DNA of 64,000 bases from an uncultured Clostridia bacterium (lineage in GTDB: Bacteria; Acidobacteriota; Aminicenantia; UBA2199), in contig CAYWEM010000001.1 in assembly GCA_964457225.1 (NCBI GenBank), forward strand, positions 78,012-142,011, given 5' to 3'. The notes below the pieces were generated by a model. It had not been told where the DNA came from and did not search any database. It saw only the letters and a program-made list of their open reading frames with translations. This document shows positions 1-20,262 of this stretch, piece after piece (positions within the stretch are counted from its first letter, which is position 1; each line of letters starts with the position of its first letter). Both the position numbers and the translations under genes were made by a program.

Positions 1-1033
1 GCATGAAGTATTCGGCGTATTCCGGGCAGAACTTCTGTTCCTGTTCAAGCTGGTTGATGAACAAATAGTAATGCAGGTCGTACTTGATTCCAGAATCCCG
101 GCCCTTGAAACGTGAGATCAGGAATTCGAGCAGGTCGCGGCCGCCGTAACTCTTGATGAATTTTTCCTGCCGATCCGCTGAGCTCAGGCCCATTTCTTCC
201 ACGATTACGAACAGGTTGAAAAAATCGTTCTGGAACAGCTTCAACATGGTGCGCACAAAGGTTTCAGAAAAACCGTCCTCCCGATAATAACTGCGCTGCC
301 AGCGGCGGAAATGCCGGCTCCATTTGCGGTTCAGAATCAGTTTACTCTTGAAATAATTGGCATCAGTAATGCCCGAAACGGTTTCGTAATGGTAGATGAC
401 CACCTCAGGCTGGTAAATCACTTTGAGTCCCCTTTCCCTGATCCGCAGGCAGAGATCGGTGTCCTCGTAAGTCGAATGAAAATCAAGGGAAAAAGCGCCA
501 AGTTCATTGAACAAGTCTTTTTTGATAGCCAGAAAGGCACCAGTCACCACTTCCACTTCACGCATTTTGTTGACCTGGGGTATGAAGGCCGGAGCGAATT
601 TGTATATGTGCTCCGAACCGTTGGTTTCCGGGTTTATGGCTCCGCCGGCGAACTGGATCAGGTGAGTGTCGGGATAGATCAGCTTGCCGCCGACCACGGC
701 AATGCTTTTATCTAGGGCAAAGGTTTTCAGTACCGTGTAAAGCCAGCCTGGAGAAACTATCTCAGTATCCACATTCAAAAAGACCAGGAGTCCGCCGCGG
801 GCCAGGGCGGCGCCCCGGTTGACCGTCCTGACAAAACCCAGGTTTTTGCGGTTGCGGTAAAATCTTACCCGGCTGAATTTCTTTTTAATTTCAGCGGATA
901 CCGGCTGTTTCGAGCCGTCATCGACCAGAATGATTTCGTAGTCATGGTAATAGGTATAGGCCTTGATCGATTCCAGGCATCTCGGCAGGTACTCTTCGGC
1001 ATCAAAGTACGGGATGACGATCGATATTTTCAT
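1..1033 (-). CDS. Family 2 glycosyltransferase (GT-A fold); 5' part only, C-terminus runs off the left edge of the window
   Basis: My minus-strand translation starts at ATG 1033..1031 (MKISIVIPYFDAEEYL...VDDGS...YEDTDLC), the typical GT2 N-terminal DxD architecture. It overlaps the upstream gene by 32 bp. It is not in the ORF track because it is truncated by the window edge. Confidence 0.75.
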   Translation of the reverse strand, partial: MKISIVIPYFDAEEYLPRCLESIKAYTYYHDYEIILVDDGSKQPVSAEIKKKFSRVRFYRNRKNLGFVRTVNRGAALARGGLLVFLNVDTEIVSPGWLYTVLKTFALDKSIAVVGGKLIYPDTHLIQFAGGAINPETNGSEHIYKFAPAFIPQVNKMREVEVVTGAFLAIKKDLFNELGAFSLDFHSTYEDTDLCLRIRERGLKVIYQPEVVIYHYETVSGITDANYFKSKLILNRKWSRHFRRWQRSYYREDGFSETFVRTMLKLFQNDFFNLFVIVEEMGLSSADRQEKFIKSYGGRDLLEFLISRFKGRDSGIKYDLHYYLFINQLEQEQKFCPEYAEYFM

Positions 1034-2597
1034 TGCTTCTGAATCCGTTTTTTTCCGCTTCCTGATTTAATCTGGCTGTTTGTTCCTTTTCTGCCAGGCA
1101 GAGCAGGTTTCTCTTTTGGAAACCCAGACCCAACAATTGTTTTCTTATTGATTTGTAATATATTGAAGCGATAATCACTTTGGCCTCGGCGATAAAAACT
1201 GGTTTTTTCACCCTTTTACCGAAAAAAGTTCTCGTTTTCGGCCGGTTATCAAAAAAACAGACGATCTGGAAGCGTTCCCGATGCAACATCAATAAGACCC
1301 ATAGAGCAAGTGATCCGGTACCGAAAATAATCAGAGGCTGTTCTTTGCGTTGTATGCCCCAATTACGCTTGGTTGAGGGAAGTAAACCAGGTCTTTGCCC
1401 TGAAGAAACAGCGGGTTTTTCCTGAAAATAAGAGGAAATCTGCTTTTGAATACTCTCAGGCGAATAGGCTTTCTCAGCGAATTGCCGGCCCCGTTCGCCA
1501 AGTTTTAAAGCCAGTCCCCGGTCCCGGTACAAACGACGCATCAGCTCAACCGCCTGTTCCAGGTTCGGCTCGGCCCACAACCAGCCTTGCCGGTATGGTC
1601 CAAATCTCCTGCGAACCTCAGTCTTGCTGAAAGTCAATGGCAGGGAGTTATCTTCATTCATAAAATCAGTATTCCCGCCGTAATTGGTTGCCACCACTGG
1701 TAGTCCAAGAAACATGGCTTCCAGCATACCTATGCCAAAACCCTCTGAACGGTGCAGTGAAACGTAGGCATCAGTTGCAGCCAGCAAGTTCATGTACTCG
1801 TTTTTAGAGAAGTTACGGTATTCAAAAATCACCCGGCCCTGCAGGCCTTGAGCAAGAACCATCTTGTGTAACTCTTTGATGTTGTCCAGCCCGGACTTGG
1901 CGTGGGCGATCTTGAAAACCAGTTTTGTATCTTTTTGCCGGAGAAAGGCGGCGGAAAAAGCGCTTAAAAGACCAAGTGGGTTTTTTCTCTCATAAGAACT
2001 GTACAGGTCAAAATTGAAAAAAATCACGAAATCATCATCGTTTAACTGGTAGTCCTGCCTAACTTCCCGTCTGGTCCTGGTTATGTTCCAGTTCCGGTAG
2101 TAGGGAAAGACCAGCTGTCTTACTTGGGCACTTCCGGAAAGACTTTTTGCTACAGCTGTTTTCACAAACGAGGAAAAAACCAGCACATCATCGATAAAAT
2201 TAAATGCTTGCGGAAAATCAAAATAGTCATCGAATTCCCACCAGAATACTCCCGTATTAAAAGTCCCCTTGATGGCCCCGGCATTGATTTTATTAAAATA
2301 TGGAATGGAATCCGCATTGCAAAAAAACAAGTTGTGCCTGAAACTCGGTCTGAGCTTTCTTTTTTTCAACAACGGAATTTGCTCTTCCGGGCTGATCAGC
2401 TGGTGAAAGTTGGAATGCAGGAAATACAGCGAATGCGGAAAGTGCATGTCCACCAGGTGGCGGATGAAAAACCTGCCGACTTCAGCTATACCAATCATGT
2501 TCAGGAAATAGCCGATTACGTTCAAACCTTCAGTACCGATAGGGCAATGCTTTTTAGGCATGAGTCTCGTCAGGAAGTTTCCTTCTTGTCCCATCAC
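1002..2597 (-). CDS. GT4-family glycosyltransferase with an ~80-aa C-terminal Rossmann-like extension (IFGTG...CFFDNRP...VIIAS)
   Basis: Glycos_transf_1 signature EGFGIGMLEAMFLGLPVVATNYGGNTDFM. The C-terminal 80 aa are ~45% identical to the C-terminus of the neighbouring 1058-aa protein. Confidence 0.75.
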   Translation of the reverse strand: MMGQEGNFLTRLMPKKHCPIGTEGLNVIGYFLNMIGIAEVGRFFIRHLVDMHFPHSLYFLHSNFHQLISPEEQIPLLKKRKLRPSFRHNLFFCNADSIPYFNKINAGAIKGTFNTGVFWWEFDDYFDFPQAFNFIDDVLVFSSFVKTAVAKSLSGSAQVRQLVFPYYRNWNITRTRREVRQDYQLNDDDFVIFFNFDLYSSYERKNPLGLLSAFSAAFLRQKDTKLVFKIAHAKSGLDNIKELHKMVLAQGLQGRVIFEYRNFSKNEYMNLLAATDAYVSLHRSEGFGIGMLEAMFLGLPVVATNYGGNTDFMNEDNSLPLTFSKTEVRRRFGPYRQGWLWAEPNLEQAVELMRRLYRDRGLALKLGERGRQFAEKAYSPESIQKQISSYFQEKPAVSSGQRPGLLPSTKRNWGIQRKEQPLIIFGTGSLALWVLLMLHRERFQIVCFFDNRPKTRTFFGKRVKKPVFIAEAKVIIASIYYKSIRKQLLGLGFQKRNLLCLAEKEQTARLNQEAEKNGFRSNENIDRHPVL

Positions 2598-2612
2598 TTG
2601 AAAACTGTATCA

Positions 2613-5600
2613 TCATGCTTCCTCATCCTCGGAAATGGCCGACAATAAGTCATTTTCAACATAACCAAGTTCCAGCAACTGCCGGCTGATTTGTTCCGAA
2701 TACATTGAGGCGATTATCACCCTGGCCCCGGGCATGAATCTCGGCTTGCGCACCGGCAGGCCCAGGAATTCCCTGTTCCTGGGCCGATTGTCAAAAAAGC
2801 AGTTGATTTTGTTTTTTTCTTTTCCCAGCATGCGCATGATCCAGGCGGACATTGCTCCAGTGCCGAATATCACCAGTTTCTTGTCCGGACCGGCAAATTT
2901 TTCCTTTAAGTCCTGAACAAACCCGGCCAAGTGCAACAGCATTTCCTCTCTCTGCCGGGCGGAATTCGCGGCCTTTTCCAACTGCTTTTCTTGGTGCCGT
3001 AAAAGAGACTCCTGTTCAAGGATTCTCTGCTCCTTTTCAGCAAGGTGGTTCCGACATGTGCTTATTTCCTGCTCCCAGGCCAGGGTCATCGACCTGGCAT
3101 CCTGAAGCTCAAGCTTTCCCCGTATTGAAAAAGAAATACATGACCTCACTTTTTGTCTGACCAGGAAAATCGGATCAGCAGTCCTGAAGAGATAAAAGCC
3201 ATCAAGCTGAGGAACCCCGTTGCTCTCCAGGCGGTTCAAAGCCAATTCCCTGAAGCGGCCCGACCTGGTTTTAATCTTGATGCCGTCAATCCTGACCCGG
3301 CCCCAATAACCTTCCCAGGGGTCGAAACGCCAGAACCTGACCGTTCCCCTTGGCGGTATGGAAAAACAGACTGAAAATGAACCGTCATCCCTGACGGCTA
3401 TCTGTTCGTTGACCTTGTCCTGCTCACTGAACCCTCCGCCGAGATCAAAAAAAAGACCGGCCTCGAGGTTCAGAGGCAGGCGGGAACTATTCTCGATCAC
3501 GCTCAGCAGTAAGCGGTCGATATCCCGTAAATACAGGCCGTCTTCGCTGGTCCAGGGCTGGTCGGCCAGAGCCTCAACCATTGATTCTTTCTTTTTCTTG
3601 GCAGCCGGCGGAATAGAATCCTTTTTCAGCACCTGGCGCTCGAACAGAATATCACGGTAAAACTCAACCATGGCCCTGATTTCATCCTCAAGGCTTGGAA
3701 TCAGGGTTTTTCCGGCCCCGGCCCGGATTTTTTTCAGCAGGCCCGGTTCAGTAAGCAACCTGTTCATGGCAGCCGTTAGTGCCTCGCTGTCGCCGACGGG
3801 AAACTTCAGTCCGTTGACTTCGTTCTGAACGATGAAAGAACCAAAAAAATCAGCCGCAATGACCGGCAGGCCCAGGGCAAGGGCTTCGCGCAGAACCCGG
3901 TTATAAGTGTCGAAATAAGACGGCACTATGACCAGGTCCGAACCGGCCGCCAGCCCGGGGAAATCCTCCGGGGCGTAGGGCCCGTGGTACTGTATCCGGC
4001 CGGGAAACTCCGCCGTCAATTGGTTTATCCGGTTCAGGAATTCCGGAACGACCATGATCCCGTACAAATCAAGCCTGAACCCCTTGCTTGAAGCTGTTTT
4101 TGCAAAAGCTTTCAGGATAAGATCTATTCCCTTGCTGAACAGCATGGTGCCGAAATACGCGAAACGCAACTCAGATCGATTTTTTCCGGATTTTTTCAAT
4201 CCGGCCGTTTCGGGTTTTTCGAAACCCCTGGGAATAATCCTGGTTTTGTCAGGGCTGATGGGCACATATGAAGTGAAGTGATCTCGGAACTTGGGGCTGG
4301 TGAAAATCACTCCGGCAATCTTTTCGGCGTAAAGCCTCCTGGTGTTTTCAGCCCGGTCAGCCAGCAGCTTTTCCATCCGGGTCAATTCCAGCTCCGGCAT
4401 GTTATTCCGGCTGAGGCCCCGCACCCGGGCCATAAAGCATTCAGCGCACTTGGCCGCGGTTTCCGGCCCGGAACAAAGATAACCGTCCAGCCCCTCGGAT
4501 ATCACCGGGTAATCCTGGTGGCAGATCTCTTCGTCATTGCAGACACAGCGCACCACCGGCACTCCCAGGTCGTGAAACAGGGCCAGGGCTTCAACCGGCA
4601 GGTAGACGTAATCGTTGACCTGAATGATGTCCGGCCGAAAATCTTTACAGATTCTTTCCAGGGAGTAAAGCTGGAGTAATAGCGCCGGGCGGTTGATCTG
4701 CCGAAGGAAGGCCCGATGTTTATCAAACCTGGGGACTGTGTAAAGGGTAATACCATTCAGGTTTTCCTTCTTGAAACCGACTCTGACTTCGCAGGCCGAG
4801 GGGACCAGCACCGCGGTTTCAATCCCTAGCTTCTGCAGTCCCCGGGCATGGTTCCAGGTGCTGATCGGGGTGCCCGAATTCTCAAAAGGAGGAATGGCAT
4901 GGTTTACCAGCAGGACCCGTTCCACTCTCTGCTTGACCAGGTCATCACGATCAGAGTGGAGGCGCGCCTCCGCATGTACCTGGTCCCACTGGGGATATTT
5001 TTTGCGCAGGCGTTCATGGGAAATCCTTTGCCTTTCAAGCTTGGTCTGGAGGTGTTGCTCATCTTTCACGTAATCATGGTATATAACAGGCTTAGGAGAG
5101 TATATCTGCCTTCGCTTGTCCGGATCAAATTCCAGCAGGCGCAGGTAAAGTTCAGCGCCGCCGCCGCCGAAATTGATCTCATCATCCCAGCCACCGACCT
5201 GGAAAAAGGCTTCGGCCAGGTAGGAGGTGTTGCCTTCCACGTGGGCGAAGGTTGGATAATCATTCGGTCCCATGTAGTAATGGGCTTGCTTTTGGTTGAG
5301 CGGATTGTCCGTCTTGGGCACATACAAACCTCGACAGGCGATGAGGTCGTACTTCTTGAATAGCCCGAGATGGGCCGCCAGCAGGTTTTCCGCCGGGATG
5401 CCGTCGTCTTCCAGGAAAAGCAGGATGGGCGCCTCGGCGAAAACCGCGCCCAGGTTGCGGGCCAGGTAGGCGCCGGTATTGCCGTTCAACCTGATATAAG
5501 TATCGATGTAAGGTTCAAGCTCCCTGAACTCACCTTCCGGAGCACCGTTGTCGACAAAGATCAGTTCGATATTCATCCCACGCTGTTTTTCCAGGATCCG

Positions 5601-5789
5601 GAAGCTTTCCAGGTTGTCCCGATGCAGGCGCCAGGAGATGACGATGACTGAAAGCAGAGGAGATTCAGTTTTCCTGAGATAATTAACCCGATCCAGGTAT
5701 TCCAGGTAGCGGGTTTCCTTTTTTCGCCAGTTGCGGCGCATCAAGGCTTTTCTCAATTCAGCCCCGGCATAACTACTGTTCTTGCTCAT
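2613..5789 (-). CDS. Giant multidomain glycosyltransferase: N-terminal GT2 domain, central GT4 domain, coiled-coil segment, and the same C-terminal IFGTG/FFDNRP domain
   Basis: GT2 motifs LSVIVISWR..FVDNG..EDDG. GT4 motif region GLPVIAADFFGSFIVQNEVNGLKF. Heptad-rich EKEQRILEQESLLRHQEKQLEKAANSARQREEML. C-terminal domain shared with 1002-2597. Confidence 0.7.
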   Translation of the reverse strand: MSKNSSYAGAELRKALMRRNWRKKETRYLEYLDRVNYLRKTESPLLSVIVISWRLHRDNLESFRILEKQRGMNIELIFVDNGAPEGEFRELEPYIDTYIRLNGNTGAYLARNLGAVFAEAPILLFLEDDGIPAENLLAAHLGLFKKYDLIACRGLYVPKTDNPLNQKQAHYYMGPNDYPTFAHVEGNTSYLAEAFFQVGGWDDEINFGGGGAELYLRLLEFDPDKRRQIYSPKPVIYHDYVKDEQHLQTKLERQRISHERLRKKYPQWDQVHAEARLHSDRDDLVKQRVERVLLVNHAIPPFENSGTPISTWNHARGLQKLGIETAVLVPSACEVRVGFKKENLNGITLYTVPRFDKHRAFLRQINRPALLLQLYSLERICKDFRPDIIQVNDYVYLPVEALALFHDLGVPVVRCVCNDEEICHQDYPVISEGLDGYLCSGPETAAKCAECFMARVRGLSRNNMPELELTRMEKLLADRAENTRRLYAEKIAGVIFTSPKFRDHFTSYVPISPDKTRIIPRGFEKPETAGLKKSGKNRSELRFAYFGTMLFSKGIDLILKAFAKTASSKGFRLDLYGIMVVPEFLNRINQLTAEFPGRIQYHGPYAPEDFPGLAAGSDLVIVPSYFDTYNRVLREALALGLPVIAADFFGSFIVQNEVNGLKFPVGDSEALTAAMNRLLTEPGLLKKIRAGAGKTLIPSLEDEIRAMVEFYRDILFERQVLKKDSIPPAAKKKKESMVEALADQPWTSEDGLYLRDIDRLLLSVIENSSRLPLNLEAGLFFDLGGGFSEQDKVNEQIAVRDDGSFSVCFSIPPRGTVRFWRFDPWEGYWGRVRIDGIKIKTRSGRFRELALNRLESNGVPQLDGFYLFRTADPIFLVRQKVRSCISFSIRGKLELQDARSMTLAWEQEISTCRNHLAEKEQRILEQESLLRHQEKQLEKAANSARQREEMLLHLAGFVQDLKEKFAGPDKKLVIFGTGAMSAWIMRMLGKEKNKINCFFDNRPRNREFLGLPVRKPRFMPGARVIIASMYSEQISRQLLELGYVENDLLSAISEDEEA

Positions 5790-5831: not shown

Positions 5832-6599
5832 TCAATCAGCCGTCTTTTTTGAGAAGAGGTCGAAGGGAAAAGCCTCTTTCAGTTTTTCCGGATCCATTAT
5901 CGGAGCAGGTTCCCCCCCCATTTCCAGGGCTTCGGCCAGGCTGGAAGCGGCCATGAAACCTGGTCTGCCGGTCCCCTCGTAATAATCCCGGTATTTGAAA
6001 ACGTTCTCGGTATGACCGGGAGCCAGGAGCAAGCGGGCCGGCACGCCGTAAGCTTCAGCGGCTATGATTCCATGCAGGGCGCTGGCCACGACCAGGTCAC
6101 AGCCGAGTATCGTTCCGATCACCTCCTGCACCGGAAGCAGTGGAGACAGTAGGTTCTCAACACCTGCAAACAGATCCAGGTCGTTGTAATTAGGCATGAT
6201 GACATGGTTTCTGCGGGTTTTGATTTTAAAGCTGTCCACTGGAATTAAATCGGCTAAAAGCAATCCCGGATCACCGAATACTTCAGGCCCCCTGACACCT
6301 CGTTTTTCCAGGAATTCCGCGCTCAGAGGCCCGCGGACACTGCGCACGTCCAGACTTGAAAAACTATGCCTTTCAGCCGCGATTTTCCCGTTGACGCCGC
6401 TACCCCAAACCGTGTCCCCGTCGCCGGCAAAATGAAGAATCGAGCCGACAGCCAGCAGTCTATTGCCGGCCTGCCAGGGCGGCAAAATGCCTTTTGAACG
6501 CAGCATGGCGGCCACAATAATTGGAGAAAGCTCATCGCCGAAATTACCTGGAGCTCCGGGCCGGCGGAAGTAGAACAAATTGTCTATTATTTCGGACAC
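5832..6599 (-). CDS. Polysaccharide pyruvyl transferase-like protein (CsaB/WcaK family)
   Basis: N-terminal GxxGNFGDELSPIIVAAML resembles the PS_pyruv_trans signature. The gene is embedded in a glycosyltransferase operon. It is shorter than typical family members. Confidence 0.45.
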   Translation of the reverse strand: MSEIIDNLFYFRRPGAPGNFGDELSPIIVAAMLRSKGILPPWQAGNRLLAVGSILHFAGDGDTVWGSGVNGKIAAERHSFSSLDVRSVRGPLSAEFLEKRGVRGPEVFGDPGLLLADLIPVDSFKIKTRRNHVIMPNYNDLDLFAGVENLLSPLLPVQEVIGTILGCDLVVASALHGIIAAEAYGVPARLLLAPGHTENVFKYRDYYEGTGRPGFMAASSLAEALEMGGEPAPIMDPEKLKEAFPFDLFSKKTAD

Positions 6600-6602: not shown

Positions 6603-7667
6603 TTATTGCTTCTTTTCCAGTAACAATCTCAAGAACTCTTTTTCGATTATCATCGCGTTTTTTGCCCAACTCAATGACTCAGCCTGCTTCAAGGCACAAA
6701 GAGCCATTTCCTTTCTTTTTTCCGGGGCCAGCACTGCGGCCCGGCGCAGGCCCTCGGCCAGGGCCTCCGGGCTCTGTTCCCTGATCAGGAAGCCCGTTTT
6801 CCCTTCTTCAATCAGCTCCACGGCATCGCCGACAGCCGGAGCAATTACCGGCACCCCCATGGTCAGGGCCAGCATCATCGAGCCTGAGGTCAGGTTGCCC
6901 TCCGAGGCGAAAACGGCGAAATCCGCGGCCGCGAAGAGTTTCTGCACTTCAGCATCAGGAACGCGGCCGGGCAGGAACCTAACCTGGTCCTGGTTGCCTG
7001 AACCAGGCAAATTCAATTCCACTCCAGGATAAACCTGGCCAGCTATCAGGAGTTGCCAGGGGCCCCTATTGGCTCGGCACAATGAATGGGCCTGCAGGAT
7101 CAGATCAAGTCGCTTATGCTTCCGTATATCGCCGAAAACCAGGAAGACCCGATCTGTTTCCGCATACCCCAGCTCGGCCCTGGCGGCGCTTCTCGTTAAT
7201 GAACCAGGATAGACTCCGGCGTAGTTCCCGTGGGGAGTGACCAATACTTTTTCGGCCAGAGCCGGCCAACGGGCGCAGATTTTCTCCCGGCCATATTGCG
7301 AGTGAACGAAAGCCAGGTCACAAGACCGGGCCAATCTCTGCCTCAGAAAGTTCTCCACCCCGGGGTAAAGGCCTTCGTGATTTCGATAGTTGTGAATCGT
7401 CCAGGCCAATTTGCCGCCCAGAGACTGCAAGCCGAGCAAATCGTACAAAAACGATTTGGCCCGGGCCAGGGCCCTTTCCTCACTGTCCTCGTTCTTAAAC
7501 AGAGCATCTTCCCAGTGCAGGTGGAACAACAGCCTCTCGCTCCGGTTTTCAAGTATATCCAGGGCTTCTTCAATTTTCCCAGCCGATATTTTCCAGTTGC
7601 CGGGAAAAGCCCGGTACAATAGCCGTTGATAGGGATTACTGTAATGAGGATAGTAAATTAACTGCAA
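6603..7667 (-). CDS. GT4-family glycosyltransferase
   Basis: C-terminal half has the GT4 EGNLTSGSMMLALTMGVPVIAPAVGDAVELIEEGKTGFL motif region (E-x7-E-like). Tightly packed in the operon, 3-12 bp from its neighbours. Confidence 0.7.
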   Translation of the reverse strand: MQLIYYPHYSNPYQRLLYRAFPGNWKISAGKIEEALDILENRSERLLFHLHWEDALFKNEDSEERALARAKSFLYDLLGLQSLGGKLAWTIHNYRNHEGLYPGVENFLRQRLARSCDLAFVHSQYGREKICARWPALAEKVLVTPHGNYAGVYPGSLTRSAARAELGYAETDRVFLVFGDIRKHKRLDLILQAHSLCRANRGPWQLLIAGQVYPGVELNLPGSGNQDQVRFLPGRVPDAEVQKLFAAADFAVFASEGNLTSGSMMLALTMGVPVIAPAVGDAVELIEEGKTGFLIREQSPEALAEGLRRAAVLAPEKRKEMALCALKQAESLSWAKNAMIIEKEFLRLLLEKKQ

Positions 7668-7679
7668 GATTTCACTCTT

Positions 7680-9224
7680 TCAGGATTCAGGAAAATTGTA
7701 ATCCCGCCTGACCTGCTGATCTCGAAAATCCTTGAATTCATTGCCATACACCACTCCACCCCGGCCGTCGCGGTAAACCCCGCCCTGAGCGGCGAAACTG
7801 TTGACGTAATTACATTCCAGTTCCTTGTAACCGTATTCAATGATATTGGCCACGCCATCAACCGTTCCGACCCTGGTTCCGGGATATGCTTCCGGTAGTA
7901 ATAATGGATGGAAATTTCCCTGGAATACATTCCCGAAGAATGGTTTGTTATTTGGATCGGGTGAAAAGCAATTTGGATCATAACCTATGTTCCCCTCATA
8001 ATCCATGATAAAGAAATGTACTCCGGTATAAGTCAGTTTTCCTTGACAGGAAACATTTGACAGTAAATACCTGATCATTCCATCGTCCATGTACCGGGCA
8101 ATAAAAATTCTTTCATCATCAGTGTATTCTCCCGGGAAAACCCTGCCCTCATGCTTCCCCTGCAATCTCCTGACGAAAACCAAGAAGCCGGCACGCCGGA
8201 AGAATGCCACATCTTCTTCGAAATGGCTGAAATAAGGAGGGTAAGCCACGTAGACAACCGGAACCTCAAGGTTTTTACTGCGGAAAAAGAATAAATACTT
8301 CAGATGATCTTCCCTGGAAATCATTGCAGGATGAAACGAGCTGACCATACACAATCTTTGTTCGGCGGCCAATTTGGAACCAGCAGCTTCCCCGGCGGCT
8401 TTAGTGGCAATATTGCTGATCAGGCGGATTCTCCAATTCGGCTCTGATTCGCACATGGCCACTATCTCCGGGAAAAGCCGTCCCAGGGTGGGCTCTCCAT
8501 GTCCCAGGTACAACACCAGTTTCTGGTTACCAAAACAAGCCTTTAGATTGTCATGCCATTGCTTGATGGTGCCGAAGGTTTTATCGGAATGGCTGTGCAA
8601 TCCAATGTAATAGCAATAAGGGCATCTGAAGTTGCATTTTGCTTCACGGCCGTTGTACTGCCATTGAACTACAGTATATTGCCGGGTAATCATCCAGAAA
8701 AGTGAGCGGCAGATTATCTCGTAGCCTTCGGCGTTTGGATGTAACTCGTCCCTCAGCCCATCCTGAGGTTTTTTCAATTCTCTTTGCCACAGGGCGTTTA
8801 TATCGGCAATTTTAATCTTCTTTTGCCTGGAAATATCTCTGACTACATTGCTGTAGTGGTCAACTTCCCGGTTATAGGATGACCGGGTAAAATCATAGCT
8901 TGGCGAAACGGTATTGAGAATAACCCTACTGCCTCTTTTTTCGAAAGAATCAACCATGATTATCAGATTGTTCTTGTATTCGATTTCATCGACCCCCTTG
9001 CGCCAGTCATTCATACCGAAAGCAATAACTGCTATTTCAGGCTTTTCTGCCAGCAAGGGATCGATTCTTTTTAGCCCGTCTCTGCTAGTATCGCCTCGAA
9101 CTCCGGCATTGATTACTTCGAGTTTGACTTCCGGATACTCCCGGCGAAGTTTTTCCTCCATCAGGGGGGAGAATTCCTGGGTTATCGAATCGCCGAAAAA
9201 AACCAACTTGCAAGGGTTTTCCAT
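7680..9224 (-). CDS. SGNH/GDSL hydrolase domain fused to a radical SAM domain
   Basis: N-terminal domain has GDSL block I (LVFFGDSITQ), GxND (FGMNDW) and DxxH (DELHPNAEGY). The C-terminal domain has the CxxxCxxC radical-SAM motif (CNFRCPYC) plus a C-terminal Cys cluster. Start chosen at ATG 9224 (MENPCKL), 2 nt after the TAA of the upstream gene; the ORF-track N-terminal 65 aa overlap that gene. Confidence 0.65.
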   Translation of the reverse strand: MENPCKLVFFGDSITQEFSPLMEEKLRREYPEVKLEVINAGVRGDTSRDGLKRIDPLLAEKPEIAVIAFGMNDWRKGVDEIEYKNNLIIMVDSFEKRGSRVILNTVSPSYDFTRSSYNREVDHYSNVVRDISRQKKIKIADINALWQRELKKPQDGLRDELHPNAEGYEIICRSLFWMITRQYTVVQWQYNGREAKCNFRCPYCYYIGLHSHSDKTFGTIKQWHDNLKACFGNQKLVLYLGHGEPTLGRLFPEIVAMCESEPNWRIRLISNIATKAAGEAAGSKLAAEQRLCMVSSFHPAMISREDHLKYLFFFRSKNLEVPVVYVAYPPYFSHFEEDVAFFRRAGFLVFVRRLQGKHEGRVFPGEYTDDERIFIARYMDDGMIRYLLSNVSCQGKLTYTGVHFFIMDYEGNIGYDPNCFSPDPNNKPFFGNVFQGNFHPLLLPEAYPGTRVGTVDGVANIIEYGYKELECNYVNSFAAQGGVYRDGRGGVVYGNEFKDFRDQQVRRDYNFPES

Positions 9225-9225
9225 G

Positions 9226-10197
9226 TTATTCGCCCTTAACTGCCCGCTTAACTCTTGATTCGCGATGCTTTTTAACTTCCCTGGTGTATTCCAGCAGCAG
9301 GTTGAATTCATTGCCCCTGTTTTCCAGGCATGACAAAAAAGCGTATTCATCAAGGCAGCCACAAACATTTTTCTGACATACAACGGCATCTTTTTCCAGG
9401 ACGGGTAATTCATGGTCAAACAGGTTGCCCCGTATTTCCGGCAGGCAACCGACTTTCAGGTTGCCCATAGGGTCCATTTTATAGGCAACTGTGGGGAAAT
9501 AGCATTTCCCCCCCCTGATATTTCCTTTACCGGTCTTGATTTTAACGTCGATGTCCGGAATGAGTTCAGGATACATGAGATGACCGGCTTCGGTCTGGCA
9601 GACCATTTCATTTTCCGAGAGCACGTTGGCATTGACAAAAACACCGATTTCCTGGAATTTTTCTTCTACGGAGGGGAACAGGTCAAGCTGACCCGGGGCC
9701 AGCACAAAATTCACCATGCCAACGTTGACTCCGTTCTGTATTTTTTCTTTTACACTGGTGAAGAACCTGTCAAAAGTGATCTGGGTTGGATGAAATGAAA
9801 TGTTGACCGTTATTTTTTTCCAATCGATGTCGCTGATTTTTTTTGCGCTCCAGAAACCATTGGTGTCAACCCTGATGCATTTGACCTGCTCCATCCGGGA
9901 CAAGCCGGCAAGAAAAACAAGAAAATTATTGAAGTCAGCAAAAGGTTCGCCACCGGTTATTTTCAGCACCAGCATGCTTGGGCTGAAACGGCTCATGGCT
10001 TGGAGCCATTCCCGGGGACTGTGATTGGCAAAGGCATGTTGATGCTCTTGTCCCTTGAAGCGGCTTTTATCCTGACTGCGGTGGTAAACGGCATCAAAGC
10101 AGTATTCACACCGGTAATTGCATAGCTTGGTCATTTTCCAGCTCAGATAATAATTTCGCCCGCTTCCGGGACGCCAACTGCTTCTGCCGGGATCCAT
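9226..10197 (-). CDS. Radical SAM protein with a Cys-rich C-terminal (twitch/SPASM-like) region; paralogue of the rSAM domain of 7680-9224
   Basis: CNYRCEYC (CxxxCxxC). C-terminal C-x18-C ... C-x4-C-x-C-x8-C. Shares the ISFHP / VNFVLAP segments with the neighbouring fusion protein. True start may be the internal MTKLCNYRC (~10134). Confidence 0.65.
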   Translation of the reverse strand: MDPGRSSWRPGSGRNYYLSWKMTKLCNYRCEYCFDAVYHRSQDKSRFKGQEHQHAFANHSPREWLQAMSRFSPSMLVLKITGGEPFADFNNFLVFLAGLSRMEQVKCIRVDTNGFWSAKKISDIDWKKITVNISFHPTQITFDRFFTSVKEKIQNGVNVGMVNFVLAPGQLDLFPSVEEKFQEIGVFVNANVLSENEMVCQTEAGHLMYPELIPDIDVKIKTGKGNIRGGKCYFPTVAYKMDPMGNLKVGCLPEIRGNLFDHELPVLEKDAVVCQKNVCGCLDEYAFLSCLENRGNEFNLLLEYTREVKKHRESRVKRAVKGE

Positions 10198-10229
10198 GAT
10201 TCAGTTACTCCGCATAATTCACTCGTTTA

Positions 10230-11165
10230 TCAAGTTCTTATTTTTAAAAGCTTTCCAATTCCTTTTTCATGCCTTTCAGAGCTGACCAAATAAAGGAATG
10301 TGCCGTCATGAAACCCTTTGTAAGGATTCTGGACCAACAGTTTTCTTCTGTAGATGATTTTATCTGTACTGAACTTGGTCAAAGTAGCTGAAGAACGATC
10401 TATAACAAAAAGCTGACCCGAATTCTTGATAATGTCCGAAACAAACTGGAAAGAAGTTTCTGATATCGGAGGTTTTATCACTTTTTCCCAAGCCCCGGTT
10501 TTTGGATTAAGAGCAAACATTTTTCCACTTCTGAGAAGAAAATACAGGCAGTCGTCCATTTCCTTCAAAAAAACCATTTCATCTGGATCTTCGTCAAGAC
10601 AGGGTATTCTATGCTTGAATTCGAATTTTGGAGAAAAAACCCCCAGATAATGTGTTTTTTTATTGAACAACAATAGATTGCCCTGCCAAGAAAAGATTCT
10701 CGATATTTCGTGGCCGAACTGATCAAGGTCAACGGAAAACAACTGCAGACTTTTTCCTTCCGGGGAAAACTTCTGGATCCTCTTGTTGCCCCTTTCAAGC
10801 ACAAATAAAGTTCCCCCTAGCATAACTAAGGCGATGGGTTCATTTAAACAGCCTTGTTTTTCACCTTTACCTCCAAAAGATCTCACAAATTCAAGGTTCC
10901 GGTTGTAAACCAGAATTTCATGACTGTAGAGTGCCGGCAAGTAAATCATTTCATCCGGTCCCGACACCATGTCCAGGCAATACTTCAACCGTTTGTCCTC
11001 GATTTCCTTGACGATTTCAAAGGTATAGTCTCGTTTGAGCCGGCGGGTCCTTTCCAGCAGGCCTGTTTTTTGCTCAGGGCTGATGTTGATCACGTTTTGT
11101 ATTTCGTTGTTTTTTCTCTTTCCTTCAATTCCAGGATTGATTCCGGGCAGGCTGCCGCCGTTCAA
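10230..11165 (-). CDS. NHL-repeat beta-propeller protein (hypothetical)
   Basis: Classic NHL repeat FGGKGEKQGCLNEPIALVMLGGTLFVLERGNKRIQKFSPEGK. Gene and upstream spacer are markedly AT-richer than surrounding genes. The ORF-track start is TTG with no obvious RBS, so the start is uncertain. Confidence 0.5.
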   Translation of the reverse strand: MNGGSLPGINPGIEGKRKNNEIQNVINISPEQKTGLLERTRRLKRDYTFEIVKEIEDKRLKYCLDMVSGPDEMIYLPALYSHEILVYNRNLEFVRSFGGKGEKQGCLNEPIALVMLGGTLFVLERGNKRIQKFSPEGKSLQLFSVDLDQFGHEISRIFSWQGNLLLFNKKTHYLGVFSPKFEFKHRIPCLDEDPDEMVFLKEMDDCLYFLLRSGKMFALNPKTGAWEKVIKPPISETSFQFVSDIIKNSGQLFVIDRSSATLTKFSTDKIIYRRKLLVQNPYKGFHDGTFLYLVSSERHEKGIGKLLKIRT

Positions 11166-11368
11166 AAAAGATTGAGTGACAAAAAAAAATCATCTTTTTA
11201 ATAAAGCAATTATGATGCCATCGATATAGATTTGCAAGCCCGCAACCTTGCGTTCTTTCGGCATTCCTGTTGCAGGACCTGCCGTTATTTTGACACCCGT
11301 TAATCCAATAAGACTTGACGGTATAACCGCCAGAAGTGATTATCTTGTTGACCTGGCATCCTGGTTGA

Positions 11369-14338
11369 TCAGGAATTCATACTTTCCAGAAAGGCTACAA
11401 TTTCATCGAGCAGGGCCATTACCTGCTTGTGCCCCGGGTTAAAACGCAGTATCTCTTCGAGCAGGTCGAGTGTTGCATTGACTTCACCCTCTTTCCACAA
11501 AACCCGGGCCCGGTTCAGAAAATGTCTTTCAGCCAGGGGCTGGAAACGCGATTCCAGGTAAACAGCAGGCGGTTGGGTTAAATTGCCGGCCCCAAGTTCC
11601 AAATACAGCGCTAATTCCCGCCTGATCTGTTCATCGCGAATTTTTTCCAGCCCGGCCGAAAGTTCCGCCATTTCGGCCGCGGTTAATTCTATTTCATTCA
11701 GCAATTCAAGCATTTCCGGGCAATACGCTGTCTCCCTGTCTTCGGCCAGCAGATAACGCTGGTAAGCCTGCCAGGATCCAAGCGTTTTTCCCAGGGTGGA
11801 AAAGACCCGGGCGCGCAAAAGCTCTGCCCCCGCATGCCGGCCTTCAATCCTGTCTGCCAGTAGAACCAAGTCAGTACTTTTCGCCCCTCTGGCCAGAAGC
11901 AATTCCAGCTTGAAAGCCGCAGCCCGGGGATTTTCGGGAAAGGCTTCGAGTTCCTGATCCACCCAGGCTTCAGCTTCTTTCAGAAGTTTTTTCCCCCAGA
12001 AAGCATGGGCCACCTGCAGGCATAGATCGATGCGCATCCCTGGATGTCCATGAATATCAGCCAATACTTCCGTCGACCAGTTTTGCCCTGTTTCAGTGTT
12101 CTTTACCAGTACCGGCAGGTAATCCAGGCGTCGGGGATAACCTTCCCTTTCCCTTTGCAGGTAAAGCAGGCCTTGTTCCCTGTCTCCCAGGGCGAAATAA
12201 GCCCGGGCCCTCAGCAGGTTCAGGCCCGGCTGATCACCGCTGAGCCGGCCGGCCAGCTTGCTTATTTCCGGCCGATCACCATCACCCGCCAGCATGATCT
12301 CCAGCTTGAGCATTTCCGCCTGCCGGTTCTCGGGAAATGCGCTCAGCTCTCCGTCCACCAGGGCTTCCGCCTCTTTCAGCCTGCCCCGGGCCAGCCAGGC
12401 TCGGGCCAGGTTCAGGCGGAGATCTATGGCCAAGCCGGGGCGATTGATTATCTCGGCGCTCAGTTCGGCGAACTGTCGGTCATCCAGATCTTCCAGGGCG
12501 GCCAGGTGCTGAAGCACGTCAAGCCGGTTGGGAAAGAGTTCCCATTCCCGTTTCAGGTGCCAGGCGGCCTTTTCCTTATCCCCAAGTGCCGATAAAACCT
12601 GGAAAAACTTGAAATTGACCCCCTCGGTTTCCTGGTCCTTGATTTTTTCAAGCATCTTCAGGGCGTTTTCGTTCTCCCCTTTTTCCAGCAAGAGATCTAT
12701 GTAATGCAGAAAAACGCTCACTCTTTTCGGATAAAGTGCGACTTCCTTGTTCAGGAACTCCCGGCATTGTTCCCAATCACCCCGTCGCTGGTGAATCAGG
12801 GCCACCTGGTAATAAAAACCGCCCAGCACCTGGTTCAGATGCCGCCCCCCGAGCAGATTAACAGATTGGGCCGCGTCTTCAGCAAAAAGCGCTTCCAGCT
12901 CTTCTCTCAGCAACCAGTAAAAAGCCAGGGCCCGGGCCATTTCCCCCGACTGAAAGCGGCCCAGCAATTTTTCAATCTCCAGTTCGGAGAGCGAGATTTC
13001 CTGCAGCAGGGTTTCGCGGCGGTCAGCCAGAAAACGGCCCAGAGCGTTTCCCGGTTCTGAAGCCGGTGGCAGGGCATCTCTTCCAGATCTGATTTCCTGG
13101 TACAGCCCGCGCAGTGCATTGATCTTTTCCACCAGACGCAGGGCCTGCTCGTGTTTTTGCAGGGACATTTCTTCCGGTTCCTCGGCCAGCGGCAGGTTTT
13201 GGTAGAAGGCATACAGGCCGGCGGCCAGATCCATTATTTCACTCCGCAGGCAGGTAACCGCCTCTTTCATGCCAATAAAAGCACTCTCCAGGACTCCGTA
13301 CAGTTTTTCCTCTCCAGGCCGATCGACAAACATGCCCAGTTCCGGCAAGGGCCAGGAAGAATCCCCAAGCAGGCCCCGGGCTTCCGCCTCCCGGCCCCGG
13401 TCAAGCAGGAAACGAGCCAGCATATAGGGCTTGTTCTGTTCTTTCAAGGCCTGTTCGCTATCGATCCCGGGCAGGGTAAAGGCAGCCATTCCCCCTTCAC
13501 CGTTAACCGCCCAGACCGTTTTTTCAGCCGAACCGGCAGTCTGCAGATCTAATCCACCCGGGTTTTCCAGACTGCTGAGATAACCGTACCTGCGGTTCAG
13601 CACCATGACCCGGTTGCAGTAATCGGCCAGGTAAACGTTTTCCCGGTCGGCCAGTAAAAGCCGGGCCGGGTGCTCCGGCAAATCGAAGGAGACTGCATGC
13701 TCCAGGCCGGAATACAGCCTCAACACTCTCCTGTTTCCCGAATCGGCCAGCCAGCATTCCCGGCCGTCAACCAGCAGGTCTTCCGGGAATTCCATGCCCA
13801 GGCGATCCTCATCGAGCTTGAGATAGCCGTGCCTGGAACCCAGCACTCTCGTTTCACGCCAGTCCCGGTCCCAGATGCGAAGTTGGCAATAGCTTTTATC
13901 CAGTAAAAGAAACTGCTCACCGAACCGGGCCATGGCGATTATAAGGGCGGCCGACGGCAAATCTCTGCTCAGGCGCAGTGTTAAGGACTCTCCCGGCTTC
14001 CCGAAAGAATAGACCAGGAGTTTGCGGCTCAGGCCGTCGCAAACCGCCAGCTCATCGCCCAGTATCAGCAGGGCGTCAATACGCCTCATTTCCGGCAGGC
14101 GGAATCTTTCGGTGACATTTCCCTGAAGATTCACCACGGCCAGTTCCGGACGGTGAAAATCAGCCAGCAGAATTCTATCCCGGCCGGGGAAAACCCGGTC
14201 AACCAGGAAATCCGGCAATTCCGGAACCATGGTTTGCCTGCTAATCAGCCGCATCTGCCTGTCCTGCCGTTCATGGGCTGATAGTAGACCGGGCAAGCTG
14301 TTCAAGTCAAGCTGTTTGCCGGGAAATACTGACTGCAA
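11369..14338 (-). CDS. Large NHL-like beta-propeller + multi-TPR repeat protein
   Basis: N-terminal ~300 aa with repeated hydrophobic-D/G blade-like segments. The remainder is TPR-like helical repeats (LGDKEKAAWHLKREWELFP, ARAYFALGDREQGLLYLQRE, etc.). Confidence 0.6.
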   Translation of the reverse strand: MQSVFPGKQLDLNSLPGLLSAHERQDRQMRLISRQTMVPELPDFLVDRVFPGRDRILLADFHRPELAVVNLQGNVTERFRLPEMRRIDALLILGDELAVCDGLSRKLLVYSFGKPGESLTLRLSRDLPSAALIIAMARFGEQFLLLDKSYCQLRIWDRDWRETRVLGSRHGYLKLDEDRLGMEFPEDLLVDGRECWLADSGNRRVLRLYSGLEHAVSFDLPEHPARLLLADRENVYLADYCNRVMVLNRRYGYLSSLENPGGLDLQTAGSAEKTVWAVNGEGGMAAFTLPGIDSEQALKEQNKPYMLARFLLDRGREAEARGLLGDSSWPLPELGMFVDRPGEEKLYGVLESAFIGMKEAVTCLRSEIMDLAAGLYAFYQNLPLAEEPEEMSLQKHEQALRLVEKINALRGLYQEIRSGRDALPPASEPGNALGRFLADRRETLLQEISLSELEIEKLLGRFQSGEMARALAFYWLLREELEALFAEDAAQSVNLLGGRHLNQVLGGFYYQVALIHQRRGDWEQCREFLNKEVALYPKRVSVFLHYIDLLLEKGENENALKMLEKIKDQETEGVNFKFFQVLSALGDKEKAAWHLKREWELFPNRLDVLQHLAALEDLDDRQFAELSAEIINRPGLAIDLRLNLARAWLARGRLKEAEALVDGELSAFPENRQAEMLKLEIMLAGDGDRPEISKLAGRLSGDQPGLNLLRARAYFALGDREQGLLYLQREREGYPRRLDYLPVLVKNTETGQNWSTEVLADIHGHPGMRIDLCLQVAHAFWGKKLLKEAEAWVDQELEAFPENPRAAAFKLELLLARGAKSTDLVLLADRIEGRHAGAELLRARVFSTLGKTLGSWQAYQRYLLAEDRETAYCPEMLELLNEIELTAAEMAELSAGLEKIRDEQIRRELALYLELGAGNLTQPPAVYLESRFQPLAERHFLNRARVLWKEGEVNATLDLLEEILRFNPGHKQVMALLDEIVAFLESMNS

Positions 14339-14469
14339 TCATTACTCAACAGACAGGTGCAAACCAAGCATTAGACAAGCTCTAATCTGGATTATTCAGA
14401 GTTTTTCCGGCATATCCAGAATGGCCCCGAAGCGGAACCTTGGAGATCGGGCCTGCCCTCTCTCTTAAC

Positions 14470-15081
14470 TTAAATGCTGATGCTTTTCAAAATGGCCCAA
14501 TAAGTTTTTTCATGCTGCGAAAAGGTCTCTTTGGGCGCCCGCAGAATGAAGAAGTTGAGTATAGGTATGTCGAACATCGGATTCTTTTCCTGGAGAAACA
14601 AGCCGACGTATTGGTGTTTACCTTTTTCCCAGCCGCAGGTGGCGCCGCTCATAGCACCGATTTTAATCATTTTTAAGTCCTGAGGATCGGCCCCCCCGAT
14701 ACTCGTCTTGATCCCTTCGATCAGATCGGAGCTGTTCAACATGGTTGGAGGTCTGGAACCCTGAGTAAAATAGTGATCCGGCATGGATTTACTGTCGGCT
14801 TCGGTAGCCGGGCAACAGACATCGAACTGCTGGTGTCTTTTCCAGTCCCCAGGCATGACCAGAGTGAATTGATCCATTTTCACTTTCTGACCGCCCTTGA
14901 TGGAAATGCTGAGCGCCTTTGCCTGGTCCTTTTCAACATTTTCAGTCTATTCGGCCCCGGCTTGATCCGTGACCTGAATCACTTTGGCATCATCCGTCCC
15001 ACTTTTATCCGAACAGGCCGGCAGTACAAGCAGGCATACCGCGACTAACGTCAAAACTGAAAACGCGAGTCTTTTTTTCAT
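14470..15081 (-). pseudogene. Lipoprotein gene interrupted by an in-frame TAG: signal peptide + lipobox (MKKRLAFSVLTLVAVCLLVLPAC) then TAG at 14949..14947, continuing in frame into ORF 14470-14883
   Basis: My minus-strand translation from ATG 15081 gives a 44-aa lipoprotein signal and N-terminus, then TAG, then 22 sense codons, then the ORF-track M of 14470..14883 in the same frame (198 nt = 66 codons). Confidence 0.4.
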
Positions 15082-15111
15082 GGCGATTCTCATTTTTTTT
15101 TGAGTTAAGCC

Positions 15112-16923
15112 CTATTCTAAATTTTCGTAATTTACTTTTCGGTAAAAATCGTAAAGAGCAATAATGAAAGCACGGTCAGGCTCAGTCAGCGGCTGTAGGT
15201 CTTCTTGGTTTTTTTTCGACTGCAAGTAAAACGGTATTTCATGTACCGGCAATTCTAATCCGTCAAATTCCGCCTGGCTGACTTTTGCCGATTTCCCAAG
15301 CAGGATCAGGCCATGAAACCGTCCGGCCGGCAAATCAGGCAGTACTTCCGGAATATCGCTTGTCACCAGGTAATTCTTCCTGCTTGCAAATATTTCAGCA
15401 GGCAAGTCAGAAACAATTTGCGGTTCACCAGGGACGAAGAAAACCAGGTTTTTATCAAATACCGGATCCCTGGCAAGAACATGCCTGAATTCAGAAGATC
15501 CCGGCCTGCTTTCATCAACCGCACTCAGGTCGAAAACGGCGATGTTCATGCCGGCTTGATAGGTTTTGCGGGCGAACGAATTCAGCAACTCTACAGCCCT
15601 GCCGCCCCCGCGAGCGGTTCCCAGTAGATTCAGGCCGACAGCTGAAAACAGGCCTGGATCGATTTCTGAAAGATTCAAAGCGCATCCGCAGAAAAGAGCT
15701 TCGCTGGAAGTGTTTTCCCGCCAATGCAACCTGCCCCATTCATGCAATCCCCGCCGACTGGTTTCCAGGTCACGTAACCTGGGATAAGCTTGCTGAAGGT
15801 CGAATCGCAGATCCCAGACAGATCGCAGAGTGCGGTTTACCAGGCCGTCCCCGTAAAGATCTTTGGTCATGCAGGCCAGCCATTTTTCTCTCACGGCCCG
15901 GTCCGGCTGAAAGGGAGAACTGTTTGTTTCCTGCAACATAAATCTGTAACTCCGCCGTCTTAGGTCGTTGTTGAACTTGATCGTGGTGCCCGGCAGATAA
16001 TCGAAATAATAAGGCATATCGACAAACAAATCCCGCTTTTTGGCCAAAACCTGATCCCGGTATTCAGCAAAGAGTTCATCCAACCCAGGGAAGTCCTTCA
16101 GGGAAAATCTATTCTGGTGTTTGGATATGGGATCCAGATCGAACAGATTCAGTCCGCTGAAATGGAAAAAAACCAGCTTATGCTGGTTGGCATACCAACA
16201 GCCATTTCGCTTAAGCAACCTTCGCTCGTGCAGGTTCCAATAAGCCGCATTATAGCCCGGATTGGCGGAAATATGGGCCCGGCCGAAAAACAGGGGTACG
16301 AATTCCATCCATTTCTGATCATTATGCCAACCCCGGGTATGGTCAAGAAAAGCGTTATCAAAGAGTTTTTCCTGCCACCACCGGATCATTTCCATTGATT
16401 TTTGATTGTTCCTCAGGGCAATAAAGCCGAGGTTGTAGATTCCGGCGCATAAAATGTTCAGCTCCCCGGGGTAGCGATCATCTCCATAAGGACGCAACAT
16501 GTGAGGTGTCAGGATGAAATCGTATTCATCGAGTAAGTCCGTAAATTCGGCCATAGAGTTCTTGAAAAAAATGTCGGAATCAAAATAAACGATCTTGCTG
16601 TAACCCTGAGCGGCCAGGTATTCAAACATGAAAGGCTTTATGGCCGTATTCATGTCGAGAATGTTGTATTTGAGCAGCATCTCATCCAGTTCCGGAATTT
16701 GTACCTGGTTCAGGACCTCCTTAAAAAAAACGACATCTATTCCATCCTGGTAAAGCTTTGAGAATGCCTCGATTTCACCGGCATGCATCAGCATGTCCAT
16801 GATTACTATTACGAAACGGTAATCAGGGTTGTGATTTAAAAAGGAATCCCGCAGAGTCAGGGCATAATGGGTGTAATTCTTGGCCGTTATGGTAAAAGCG
16901 ACGTTCTGCCGTTTTTGTTTCAT
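15112..16923 (-). CDS. Putative nucleotide-diphospho-sugar (GT-A-like) glycosyltransferase, 603 aa
   Basis: YFDSDIFF (DxD-like) in an N-terminal alpha/beta domain. Lies at the 5' end of the glycosyltransferase operon. Family assignment is tentative. Confidence 0.4.
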   Translation of the reverse strand: MKQKRQNVAFTITAKNYTHYALTLRDSFLNHNPDYRFVIVIMDMLMHAGEIEAFSKLYQDGIDVVFFKEVLNQVQIPELDEMLLKYNILDMNTAIKPFMFEYLAAQGYSKIVYFDSDIFFKNSMAEFTDLLDEYDFILTPHMLRPYGDDRYPGELNILCAGIYNLGFIALRNNQKSMEMIRWWQEKLFDNAFLDHTRGWHNDQKWMEFVPLFFGRAHISANPGYNAAYWNLHERRLLKRNGCWYANQHKLVFFHFSGLNLFDLDPISKHQNRFSLKDFPGLDELFAEYRDQVLAKKRDLFVDMPYYFDYLPGTTIKFNNDLRRRSYRFMLQETNSSPFQPDRAVREKWLACMTKDLYGDGLVNRTLRSVWDLRFDLQQAYPRLRDLETSRRGLHEWGRLHWRENTSSEALFCGCALNLSEIDPGLFSAVGLNLLGTARGGGRAVELLNSFARKTYQAGMNIAVFDLSAVDESRPGSSEFRHVLARDPVFDKNLVFFVPGEPQIVSDLPAEIFASRKNYLVTSDIPEVLPDLPAGRFHGLILLGKSAKVSQAEFDGLELPVHEIPFYLQSKKNQEDLQPLTEPDRAFIIALYDFYRKVNYENLE

Positions 16924-17106
16924 GATTTTTTTTAAGATAATAGAAAAAAATTGTCAACAATCAAGCCGGCAAGCAAATTGCTTTTTTTTTCCGGTTGAGA
17001 TTGACATTATGCTGTTTTTTGCCATAGCATTGAAAAATGAAAAACGATCATGCGGGTAGACCCTTCGGAATACCCAAGTATTCATTCAAATTGAGGAGAA
17101 TAAGCT

Positions 17107-17880: not shown

Positions 17881-17920
17881 AATCTGTTTATTTCAGGCTG
17901 ATTGCAGAAAAAACGGGCCT

Positions 17921-20114: not shown

Positions 20115-20262
20115 ACTTTTTTTCCTGAAAAACAGCAAAAGAGTTTTTCCGGAATCCTGCAAGAAAGATGCTTTTTAATTGTTTAAGAAAAATGAAATTT
20201 AATTCAGTTACATTTCTGTCTTCTTTTACGTCCCTATTTTTTTCCTTTGCAAGGAAACACCG

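Follow-up and report, generated by a model that had tools for sequence, protein, structure and literature searches.

Small Rossmann-like accessory domains recur on phosphoglycosyl transferases, PglF-type dehydratases, PglD-type acetyltransferases and sugar C-methyltransferases. To our knowledge, only the version on WbaP has been probed, for uridine-nucleotide sensing and for dimerisation. This domain of unknown function (DUF, PF13727) is stabilised by uridine mono-, di- and triphosphate (UMP, UDP and UTP), and its authors assigned allosteric nucleotide sensing to it, with UMP inhibiting the enzyme (PMC10942596). It also forms most of the enzyme's dimer interface (PMC10942596). The same DUF is present on PglF-type dehydratases, and the authors called its conservation across unrelated enzymes puzzling (PMC10942596). 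A second described relative is the N-terminal domain of VioB. In the 1.45 Å crystal structure of VioB, a thymidine diphosphate (dTDP)-sugar is bound at its ribose by Asp32 and Lys37, at its thymine by the amide of Asn33 and at its pyrophosphate by that of Gly11 (PMC9271549). Here, we analysed 64,000 nucleotides (nt) of DNA from an uncultured Clostridia bacterium (GTDB lineage Acidobacteriota; Aminicenantia; UBA2199), positions 78,012 to 142,011 of contig CAYWEM010000001.1 (assembly GCA_964457225.1), referred to below as the window. Two adjacent minus-strand genes, A (1002..2597) and B (2613..5789), encode glycosyltransferases (GTs) that end in similar tails. The tails belong to the same kind of domain as those described above, and their motifs point to nucleotide binding.

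The tails of A and B are homologous

The tails are located at amino acids (aa) ~419-503 of A (1089..1343, minus strand; placed by BLASTP, tblastn and hidden Markov model (HMM) scans) and aa ~969-1052 of B (2634..2885, minus strand). An earlier note on this DNA, made from the letters alone, had claimed that the two C-termini are ~45% identical over ~80 aa. BLASTP aligned A 419-508 with B 969-1058 without a gap, and 41 of the 90 positions were identical (46%; 72% positives; E = 1e-23), in good agreement with that claim. The motif string quoted in the note (IFGTG...CFFDNRP...) agreed with the invariant columns of the pairwise alignment. The remainders of A and B showed only weak similarity by BLASTP, as expected of two GT4 C-terminal domains.

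The note had also considered that the similarity might collapse as low-complexity sequence. This did not happen: the alignment was ungapped, and neither tail is of low complexity. No DNA-level repeat or gene conversion linking the two tails was found, indicating that the similarity is old and has been maintained at the protein level. As A and B are adjacent, the two tails may plausibly have arisen by local duplication of the domain. Even so, it is very improbable that the similarity reflects chance, low complexity or a recent local duplication without function. The pairwise E value and the lack of a DNA-level repeat speak against it, as do the family-signature residues, which are all kept in both tails except at the Lys47 position, the hundreds of homologues and the confident fold prediction (both below). 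A chance origin as such was refuted. A search for further carriers, which the note had recommended, was run over all six frames of the 64-kb window with tblastn, a two-sequence HMM and a 91-sequence HMM; no tail copy was found beyond those of A and B.

The tail belongs to a widespread family of accessory domains

As the note had proposed, a profile was built from the two tails. With it, 1.84 billion representative proteins were searched exhaustively using HMMER. This retrieved 379 proteins at E ≤ 1e-3, of which 18 had E ≤ 1e-10, with B and A as the top two. The note had described the module as novel. This did not hold, as 379 representative proteins carry the domain and its links to a known fold and to the Pfam family C2185-like_N (PF22674) could be traced. 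This kind of domain was already known, and the tail is a divergent member of it.

Positions were counted in the best 150 of the 379 proteins, which contained 179 module copies: 69 were N-terminal, 63 C-terminal, 33 internal and 14 essentially stand-alone. A Pfam scan of the 110 best matches identified GT2 (22), class-I methyltransferases (~14) and GT4 (~12) as the main partners; WcbI, WbsX and radical S-adenosylmethionine (radical SAM) domains were also found. The GT4 homologues of B that were found in Thermodesulfovibrionales and Bacteroidetes loci showed no such tail within their own protein, which makes the tail look like an addition and not a part of the catalytic core. Among glycan-pathway enzymes, the module is a mobile accessory domain and is not catalytic.

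When 91 modules were scanned alone against Pfam (E ≤ 0.01), PglD_N matched 21, Methyltransf_14 (the C-terminal domain of sugar C-methyltransferases) 15, PF22674 14 and CoA_binding nine. The best PF22674 match among the 14 had an E value of 2.6e-10. The family profile also found the PF22674-annotated protein P0151 at E = 4e-17, and the tail of protein P0003, 48% identical to the B tail over match columns, has a weak precomputed PF22674 match. Through these intermediate sequences the window tails are linked to PF22674 members. The only direct Pfam or NCBIfam signals on the tails were from PglD_N (PF17836; E = 0.025 and 0.06; 15.6 and 14.3 bits against a gathering cut-off of 23.4) and NeuD/TIGR03570 (E = 0.017-0.039; 13.6-14.7 bits against a cut-off of 160.8). 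PF22674 itself (gathering threshold 27 bits) did not match the A and B tails even at E ≤ 10. Nine of 10 closest or selected relatives likewise had no PF22674 match, and the tenth scored 13.3 bits. PF13727 (CoA_binding_3) gave no match on the tails, and the nearest subclade (P0003-P0006, P0011 and P0020) gave no Pfam match above threshold. That the tails lie under every Pfam threshold indicates that, as judged by sequence comparison, they are a divergent subclade of the family. The note had accepted that its proposal would fall if the module were a known Pfam domain that is often attached to GT4 enzymes. The findings came close to this: the domain is common on GT2, GT4 and methyltransferase proteins, but Pfam covers the family only partly.

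The close relatives of the tails appear to be few. A metagenome scan with the four closest tails found only the contig of P0003 and one 1.9-kb contig, indicating that the tight tail subclade is rare. A word-indexed homologue search returned no match with the B tail alone and two with the 91-sequence profile; this index is insensitive to a short, divergent domain.

The tail is predicted to adopt a small Rossmann-like fold

The structure of the tail was modeled using AlphaFold 2 (AF2) with 91 homologues; a two-sequence run gave a predicted local distance difference test score (pLDDT) of 67.8 and was not used. The model had a pLDDT of 91.6 and a predicted template modelling score of 0.83. It showed the order β1, helix, β2, β3, β4, helix, β5, beginning with a strand at 17-21, a helix at 25-40 and a strand at 41-45. 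A Gly-rich loop follows β1, β2 runs to an Asp-Asn (D-N) pair, β4 runs to I-A-S, and the last helix runs to Q-L...G before β5. The tail is thus modeled as a small (~85 aa) Rossmann-like α/β domain, with the β-α-β core, the Gly-rich loop after β1 and the acidic residue ending β2 that define such folds in general.

The best structural match of the model was 2g6t, an uncharacterised Clostridium acetobutylicum protein (score 11.5). It was followed by the CoA domain of succinyl-CoA synthetase α (CoA, coenzyme A; 9.3), Rex (9.1), the FkbM methyltransferase 2py6 (9.0), the C-3'-methyltransferase TcaB9 (8.6), the PglD-type acetyltransferase 7l7y (8.2), 3nkl (8.0) and WbaP 8t53 (7.0). Judging from PDB titles, the C-terminal domain of TcaB9 contacts the dTDP-sugar. 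Foldseek returned 2g6t and WbaP at probability 1.0, then PglB-ATD, TcaB9, Rex and VioB. The structure prediction and Foldseek search, both suggested in the note, supported the likeness it had drawn to the small domains of polyprenyl-phosphate sugar transferases and NeuD/PglD enzymes. When the family profile was compared with PDB sequences, the best match was 3nkl (E = 3e-12), followed by Rex (8.5e-8), 2g6t (1.2e-4) and VioB (6.8e-4). A profile from the nine closest tails alone still found 3nkl at E = 1.2e-4.

These tails are in one superfamily with C2185-like_N (PF22674, 2g6t), PglD_N, the N-terminal domain of WbpM/PglF-type dehydratases (3nkl), the C-terminal domain of sugar C-methyltransferases and the CoA_binding_3 DUF of WbaP. 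With PF22674 the tail shares the fold of the 2g6t N-terminal domain, although the window tails and their nearest relatives lie under the threshold of that family's HMM. We take the 2g6t N-terminal domain to be the founder of PF22674 and read "C2185" as C. acetobutylicum CAC2185. A literature search on PF22674, C2185-like, 2g6t and CAC2185 found nothing relevant.

PglD_N, as in PglD, NeuD and VioB, has the same small α/β fold as the tail and is the only kind of domain in Pfam and NCBIfam that touches the tails directly. In those enzymes, the domain is followed by a left-handed β-helix acyltransferase domain, whereas the tails end their proteins and no hexapeptide-repeat match was found in Pfam scans; the module is instead C-terminal on glycosyltransferases. 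The WbaP DUF and the 3nkl N-terminal domain are, like the tail, non-catalytic small Rossmann-like domains on functionally unrelated glycoconjugate enzymes. In WbaP- and WbpM/PglF-type enzymes, which are anchored in the membrane, the domain follows a bundle of four transmembrane helices, whereas in A and B it is C-terminal and its partners are GT2 and GT4. The likeness of WbaP 8t53 to the tail is at the fold level only. As to how it may work, the closest counterparts of the module are the N-terminal domain of PglD/VioB, with its nucleotide site for an NDP-sugar, and the WbaP DUF, with nucleotide sensing and dimerisation.

The conserved motifs point to nucleotide binding

Conservation was calculated over the 179 module copies. 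Near-invariant features were F-G-[TA]-G after β1, F-x-D-N ending β2, a Lys five residues after the Asp, a Pro after β3, I-A-S ending β4 and I-x-x-Q-L-x-x-x-G in the last helix. G18 was conserved in 99% of the copies, G20 in 92%, D42 in 98%, N43 in 94% and K47 in 61%. Position 23 was G, A or S, giving a G-x-G-x-x-[GAS] motif. The N-terminal half of the family profile aligned without gaps to VioB residues 1-48. D42, N43 and K47 fell on Asp32, Asn33 and Lys37 of VioB, and the Gly-rich loop aligned with its Gly11 region. The A and B tails retain all the family signatures, G-x-G and D-N included, except Lys47.

As the G-x-G and D-N motifs align with the residues by which VioB holds its dTDP-sugar, nucleotide binding is the best-supported function. 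On balance, judging from motifs and the modeled fold, the tails are probably nucleotide-binding accessory domains, which would be regulatory or would hold a nucleotide-linked substrate, and would not be catalytic. The G-x-G loop would contact the phosphates, and the invariant Asp-Asn after β2 would contact the ribose and the base. The ligand would most likely be a nucleoside mono- or diphosphate by-product, or the nucleotide part of a nucleoside diphosphate (NDP)-sugar. Both GTs have their own donor sites, so the tail would most plausibly act as a sensor or allosteric module, or as a second site for a nucleotide-linked substrate, common to several enzymes of one pathway. The tails might self-associate too, as the WbaP domain does.

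A putative regulator carrying a domain of this kind was found in another locus. The locus of P0004 (JGI sample 3300075153, 94-kb contig) encodes a 235-aa protein with HTH_24 and PF22674 domains. Its layout is that of Rex, a winged helix plus a sensor domain, and this analogy suggests a transcription factor that uses the same sensor domain.

Several observations weigh against nucleotide binding by the tails. Lys47 is absent in the window subclade: it is N in B and T in A, with an R or K one position earlier. A two-residue deletion lies just after this position in the window tails. The pocket of the window tails may therefore differ from the VioB site. No Pfam or NCBIfam model matched either tail above threshold. 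An extra nucleotide site is also an assumption in itself, as both GTs already have donor-binding sites. Moreover, tandem copies and several carriers per cluster, described below, are explained at least as well by self-association.

A related possibility is that the tail binds NAD(P) or (acyl-)CoA, giving A and B a second redox or acyl-transfer activity. The structural neighbours of the tail include CoA-binding and NAD(P)-binding Rossmann domains, nine of the 91 modules matched Pfam CoA_binding at E ≤ 0.01, and the family has the G-x-G-x-x-[GAS] motif and the Asp ending β2. However, the module is only ~85 aa long and has no adjoining catalytic or substrate domain, be it the β-helix of PglD/NeuD or the C-terminal half of a dehydrogenase. 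Its copies stand alone, in tandem or on enzymes whose chemistries are unrelated, and its D-N...K signature agrees with the NDP-sugar site of VioB. We regard a cofactor-binding role as improbable.

Tandem copies and multiple carriers suggest self-association

The note had offered two readings of the module, a regulatory nucleotide-binding tail and a docking or oligomerisation element, and the copy counts bear on the second. Among the best 150 proteins, 28 had two or three modules; 17 of them had adjacent tandem copies, and six consisted of two modules only. This arrangement suggests self-association. The module may thus serve mainly in homotypic or heterotypic association and assemble the enzymes of a glycan pathway, here A and B, with the coiled coil of B multimerising B and presenting the tails. 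We hold this docking role to be possible but less likely than nucleotide binding. It would be compatible with nucleotide binding, because the WbaP DUF does both.

In line with docking, the module is often found on several different enzymes encoded together in one locus: two in the window, at least six in the P0004 locus, three each in loci L004 and L005 (the latter 12 kb) and three to four in L008. In the P0004 locus, these are P0004 and five neighbours annotated PF22674: a methyltransferase, a WbsX GT, a GT2, the HTH_24 protein and one weak match. The tails of A and B were 48% identical over match columns, above the 99th percentile of all module pairs (42.7%), and the modules of an adjacent gene pair in L004 were 53% identical. 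The modules of one cluster were mutual closest relatives in the window and for this L004 pair, but not in L005 or for the third L004 copy. In many cases, modules of one cluster resembled each other no more than random pairs do (18-33% in L004 and L005), which argues against docking. Two structural points argue against it as well: the near-invariant residues are at classical nucleotide-site positions and not on an obvious interface, and the β-hairpin swap insertion used in the WbaP dimer was not seen in the AF2 secondary structure of the 85-aa tail.

A further indication, resembling a Rosetta-stone relationship, came from a fused protein. In a Bacteroidetes metagenome-assembled genome (OY969888.1; locus L002), an open reading frame (ORF) at 7199-20788 (plus strand) encodes 4529 aa with a methyltransferase, five GT4, two WbsX and two GT2 domains and tetratricopeptide repeats (TPR). 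Among these GT4 domains, one shares 42% identity with the GT4 of B. Enzymes of the same types are encoded by separate, module-bearing genes in the P0004 locus, and an HMM scan of L002 found no module copy in the 4529-aa ORF. This contrast hints that the module may take the place of a covalent fusion.

Taken further, the module could be a non-covalent docking tag for assembly-line glycan synthesis in the cytoplasm, by analogy with the docking domains of polyketide synthases and non-ribosomal peptide synthetases. GT2, GT4, WbsX, methyltransferase and radical-SAM enzymes would each be tagged and would form a metabolon, whereas other lineages would use one fusion of several thousand residues. The coil of B, variable in length, would then be a ruler that sets how far the docked A lies from the catalytic domains of B, and nucleotide binding could gate the assembly. 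We consider this extended scheme unlikely.

An uncalled ORF was noticed in L008 at 7007-8035 (plus strand). It matched the module HMM at E = 3.5e-8 and overlaps two called minus-strand genes. The region may be a mis-called gene.

Architecture of A and B

The note had described A as a plain GT4 and B as a protein with GT2 and GT4 domains, and the ORFs were as described, with Pfam domains above gathering thresholds. Gene A encodes 519-531 aa, depending on its start. The start is ambiguous between GTG 2597 (531 aa), ATG 2594 and ATG 2561; the public gene call uses 2561 (519 aa), and from this ATG the protein equals database protein P0002. The stop of B is 15 nt from the earliest possible start of A, and the public start lies 36 nt further in. 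A consists of a GT4, a linker of ~25 aa, the tail and a C-terminal extension of ~30 aa. Its GT4 C-terminal domain (Glycos_transf_1, aa 177-372; 1482..2069, minus strand; E = 2.5e-17, 63.4 bits) contains a canonical E-x7-E motif (EGFGIGMLE), read from the translation.

Gene B encodes 1058 aa and is identical to database protein P0001. Its GT2 (GT-A) domain is at aa ~49-171 (5277..5645, minus strand), with matches to Glycos_transf_2 (aa 64-171; E = 2.2e-9, 37.9 bits), Glyco_tranf_2_2 and an EpsD-like model (aa 72-290); LEDDG in its translation is a DXD-like motif. The GT4 (GT-B) domain is at aa ~306-692 (3714..4874, minus strand). It matched Glyco_transf_4 (306-414; 46.5 bits), Glycos_transf_1 (532-692; 64.9 bits) and Glyco_trans_1_4 (542-680), and is 45% identical to P0004. 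No recognised membrane domain was found in the Pfam scan of A and B.

The note had placed a coiled coil of ~100 aa after the GT2 and GT4 domains of B. A coil is present, but it is shorter, and a conserved domain of ~155 aa had been missed. This domain (aa ~745-895; 3105..3557, minus strand) has no Pfam or PDB sequence match. Its invariant motifs, YLRDIDRL, GSF.V.F and RFDPWEG.WGR, are common to P0004 and P0005. The coil is a Pro/Gly-free, heptad-like helix of ~60-70 aa within aa ~892-966, with 50% hydrophobic residues at the a/d positions compared with 12-14% elsewhere; its bounds were set at aa ~897-966 (2892..3101, minus strand), including a 64-aa stretch free of Pro and Gly. Profile scans of this region gave only a coiled-coil noise match to RNase_Y_N.

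P0004, with 45% identity over 773 columns, and the fragment P0005, with 35%, keep the order GT4, middle domain, coiled coil and module. The coil length varies: it is ~46 residues in P0004 (aa ~608-653), 64 in B and, as read from the alignment, well over 100 in P0005 (aa ~240-340). The B coil can be compared with the molecular-ruler coiled coils of the glycan-assembly and O-antigen enzymes WbdD and WbbB. In B, too, two GT modules are combined with a coil, and this coil differs in length from one orthologue to another. The likeness is architectural only. Pfam scans of the window cluster found no ATP-binding cassette transporter, terminating kinase/methyltransferase or membrane anchor.

Neighbouring genes and other regions of the window

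A and B follow one another head-to-tail on the minus strand and close a tightly packed row of genes at its 3' end. The row also contains a radical-SAM gene (9226-10197, minus strand), a fusion of a GDSL-lipase/acylhydrolase and a radical-SAM domain (7680-9419, minus strand; 579 aa), a GT4 (6603-7667) and a polysaccharide pyruvyl transferase (5832-6599). As listed, the radical-SAM ORF overlaps the fusion by ~190 nt, and one of the two start codons probably lies further downstream.

Beyond the row, a 311-aa protein (10230-11165, minus strand) showed NHL-like repeats by eye and had no Pfam match. NHL-like repeats were also seen by eye in the N-terminal part of a 989-aa TPR protein (11369-14338, minus strand), for which Pfam reported only TPR. 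The L008 locus encodes NeuA/B/C-like genes adjoined by an 883-aa NHL/DUF5128 protein (15072-17723). A 603-aa protein of the window (15112-16923, minus strand) had a GT8 match over the first ~130 residues only, and its remaining ~470 aa had no assignment. Two ORFs of 392 aa (24688-25866, minus strand) and 613 aa (24697-26538, plus strand) overlap on opposite strands; the plus-strand ORF had no Pfam match.

Implications

The window tails and their relatives represent a soluble branch of the superfamily, present on GT2, GT4, methyltransferase and radical-SAM enzymes and often several times per cluster. Pfam largely misses this branch, and the literature searched held no functional study of it or of the tagging of several enzymes per cluster. 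For annotation, the tails should be labelled as PglD_N/C2185-like small Rossmann-like domains and not left blank. A and B offer a compact, two-protein test system. If the domain is a docking tag, the organisation of soluble tailoring enzymes would be explained. If it senses a common nucleotide, every step of a glycan pathway could be co-regulated by one general mechanism.

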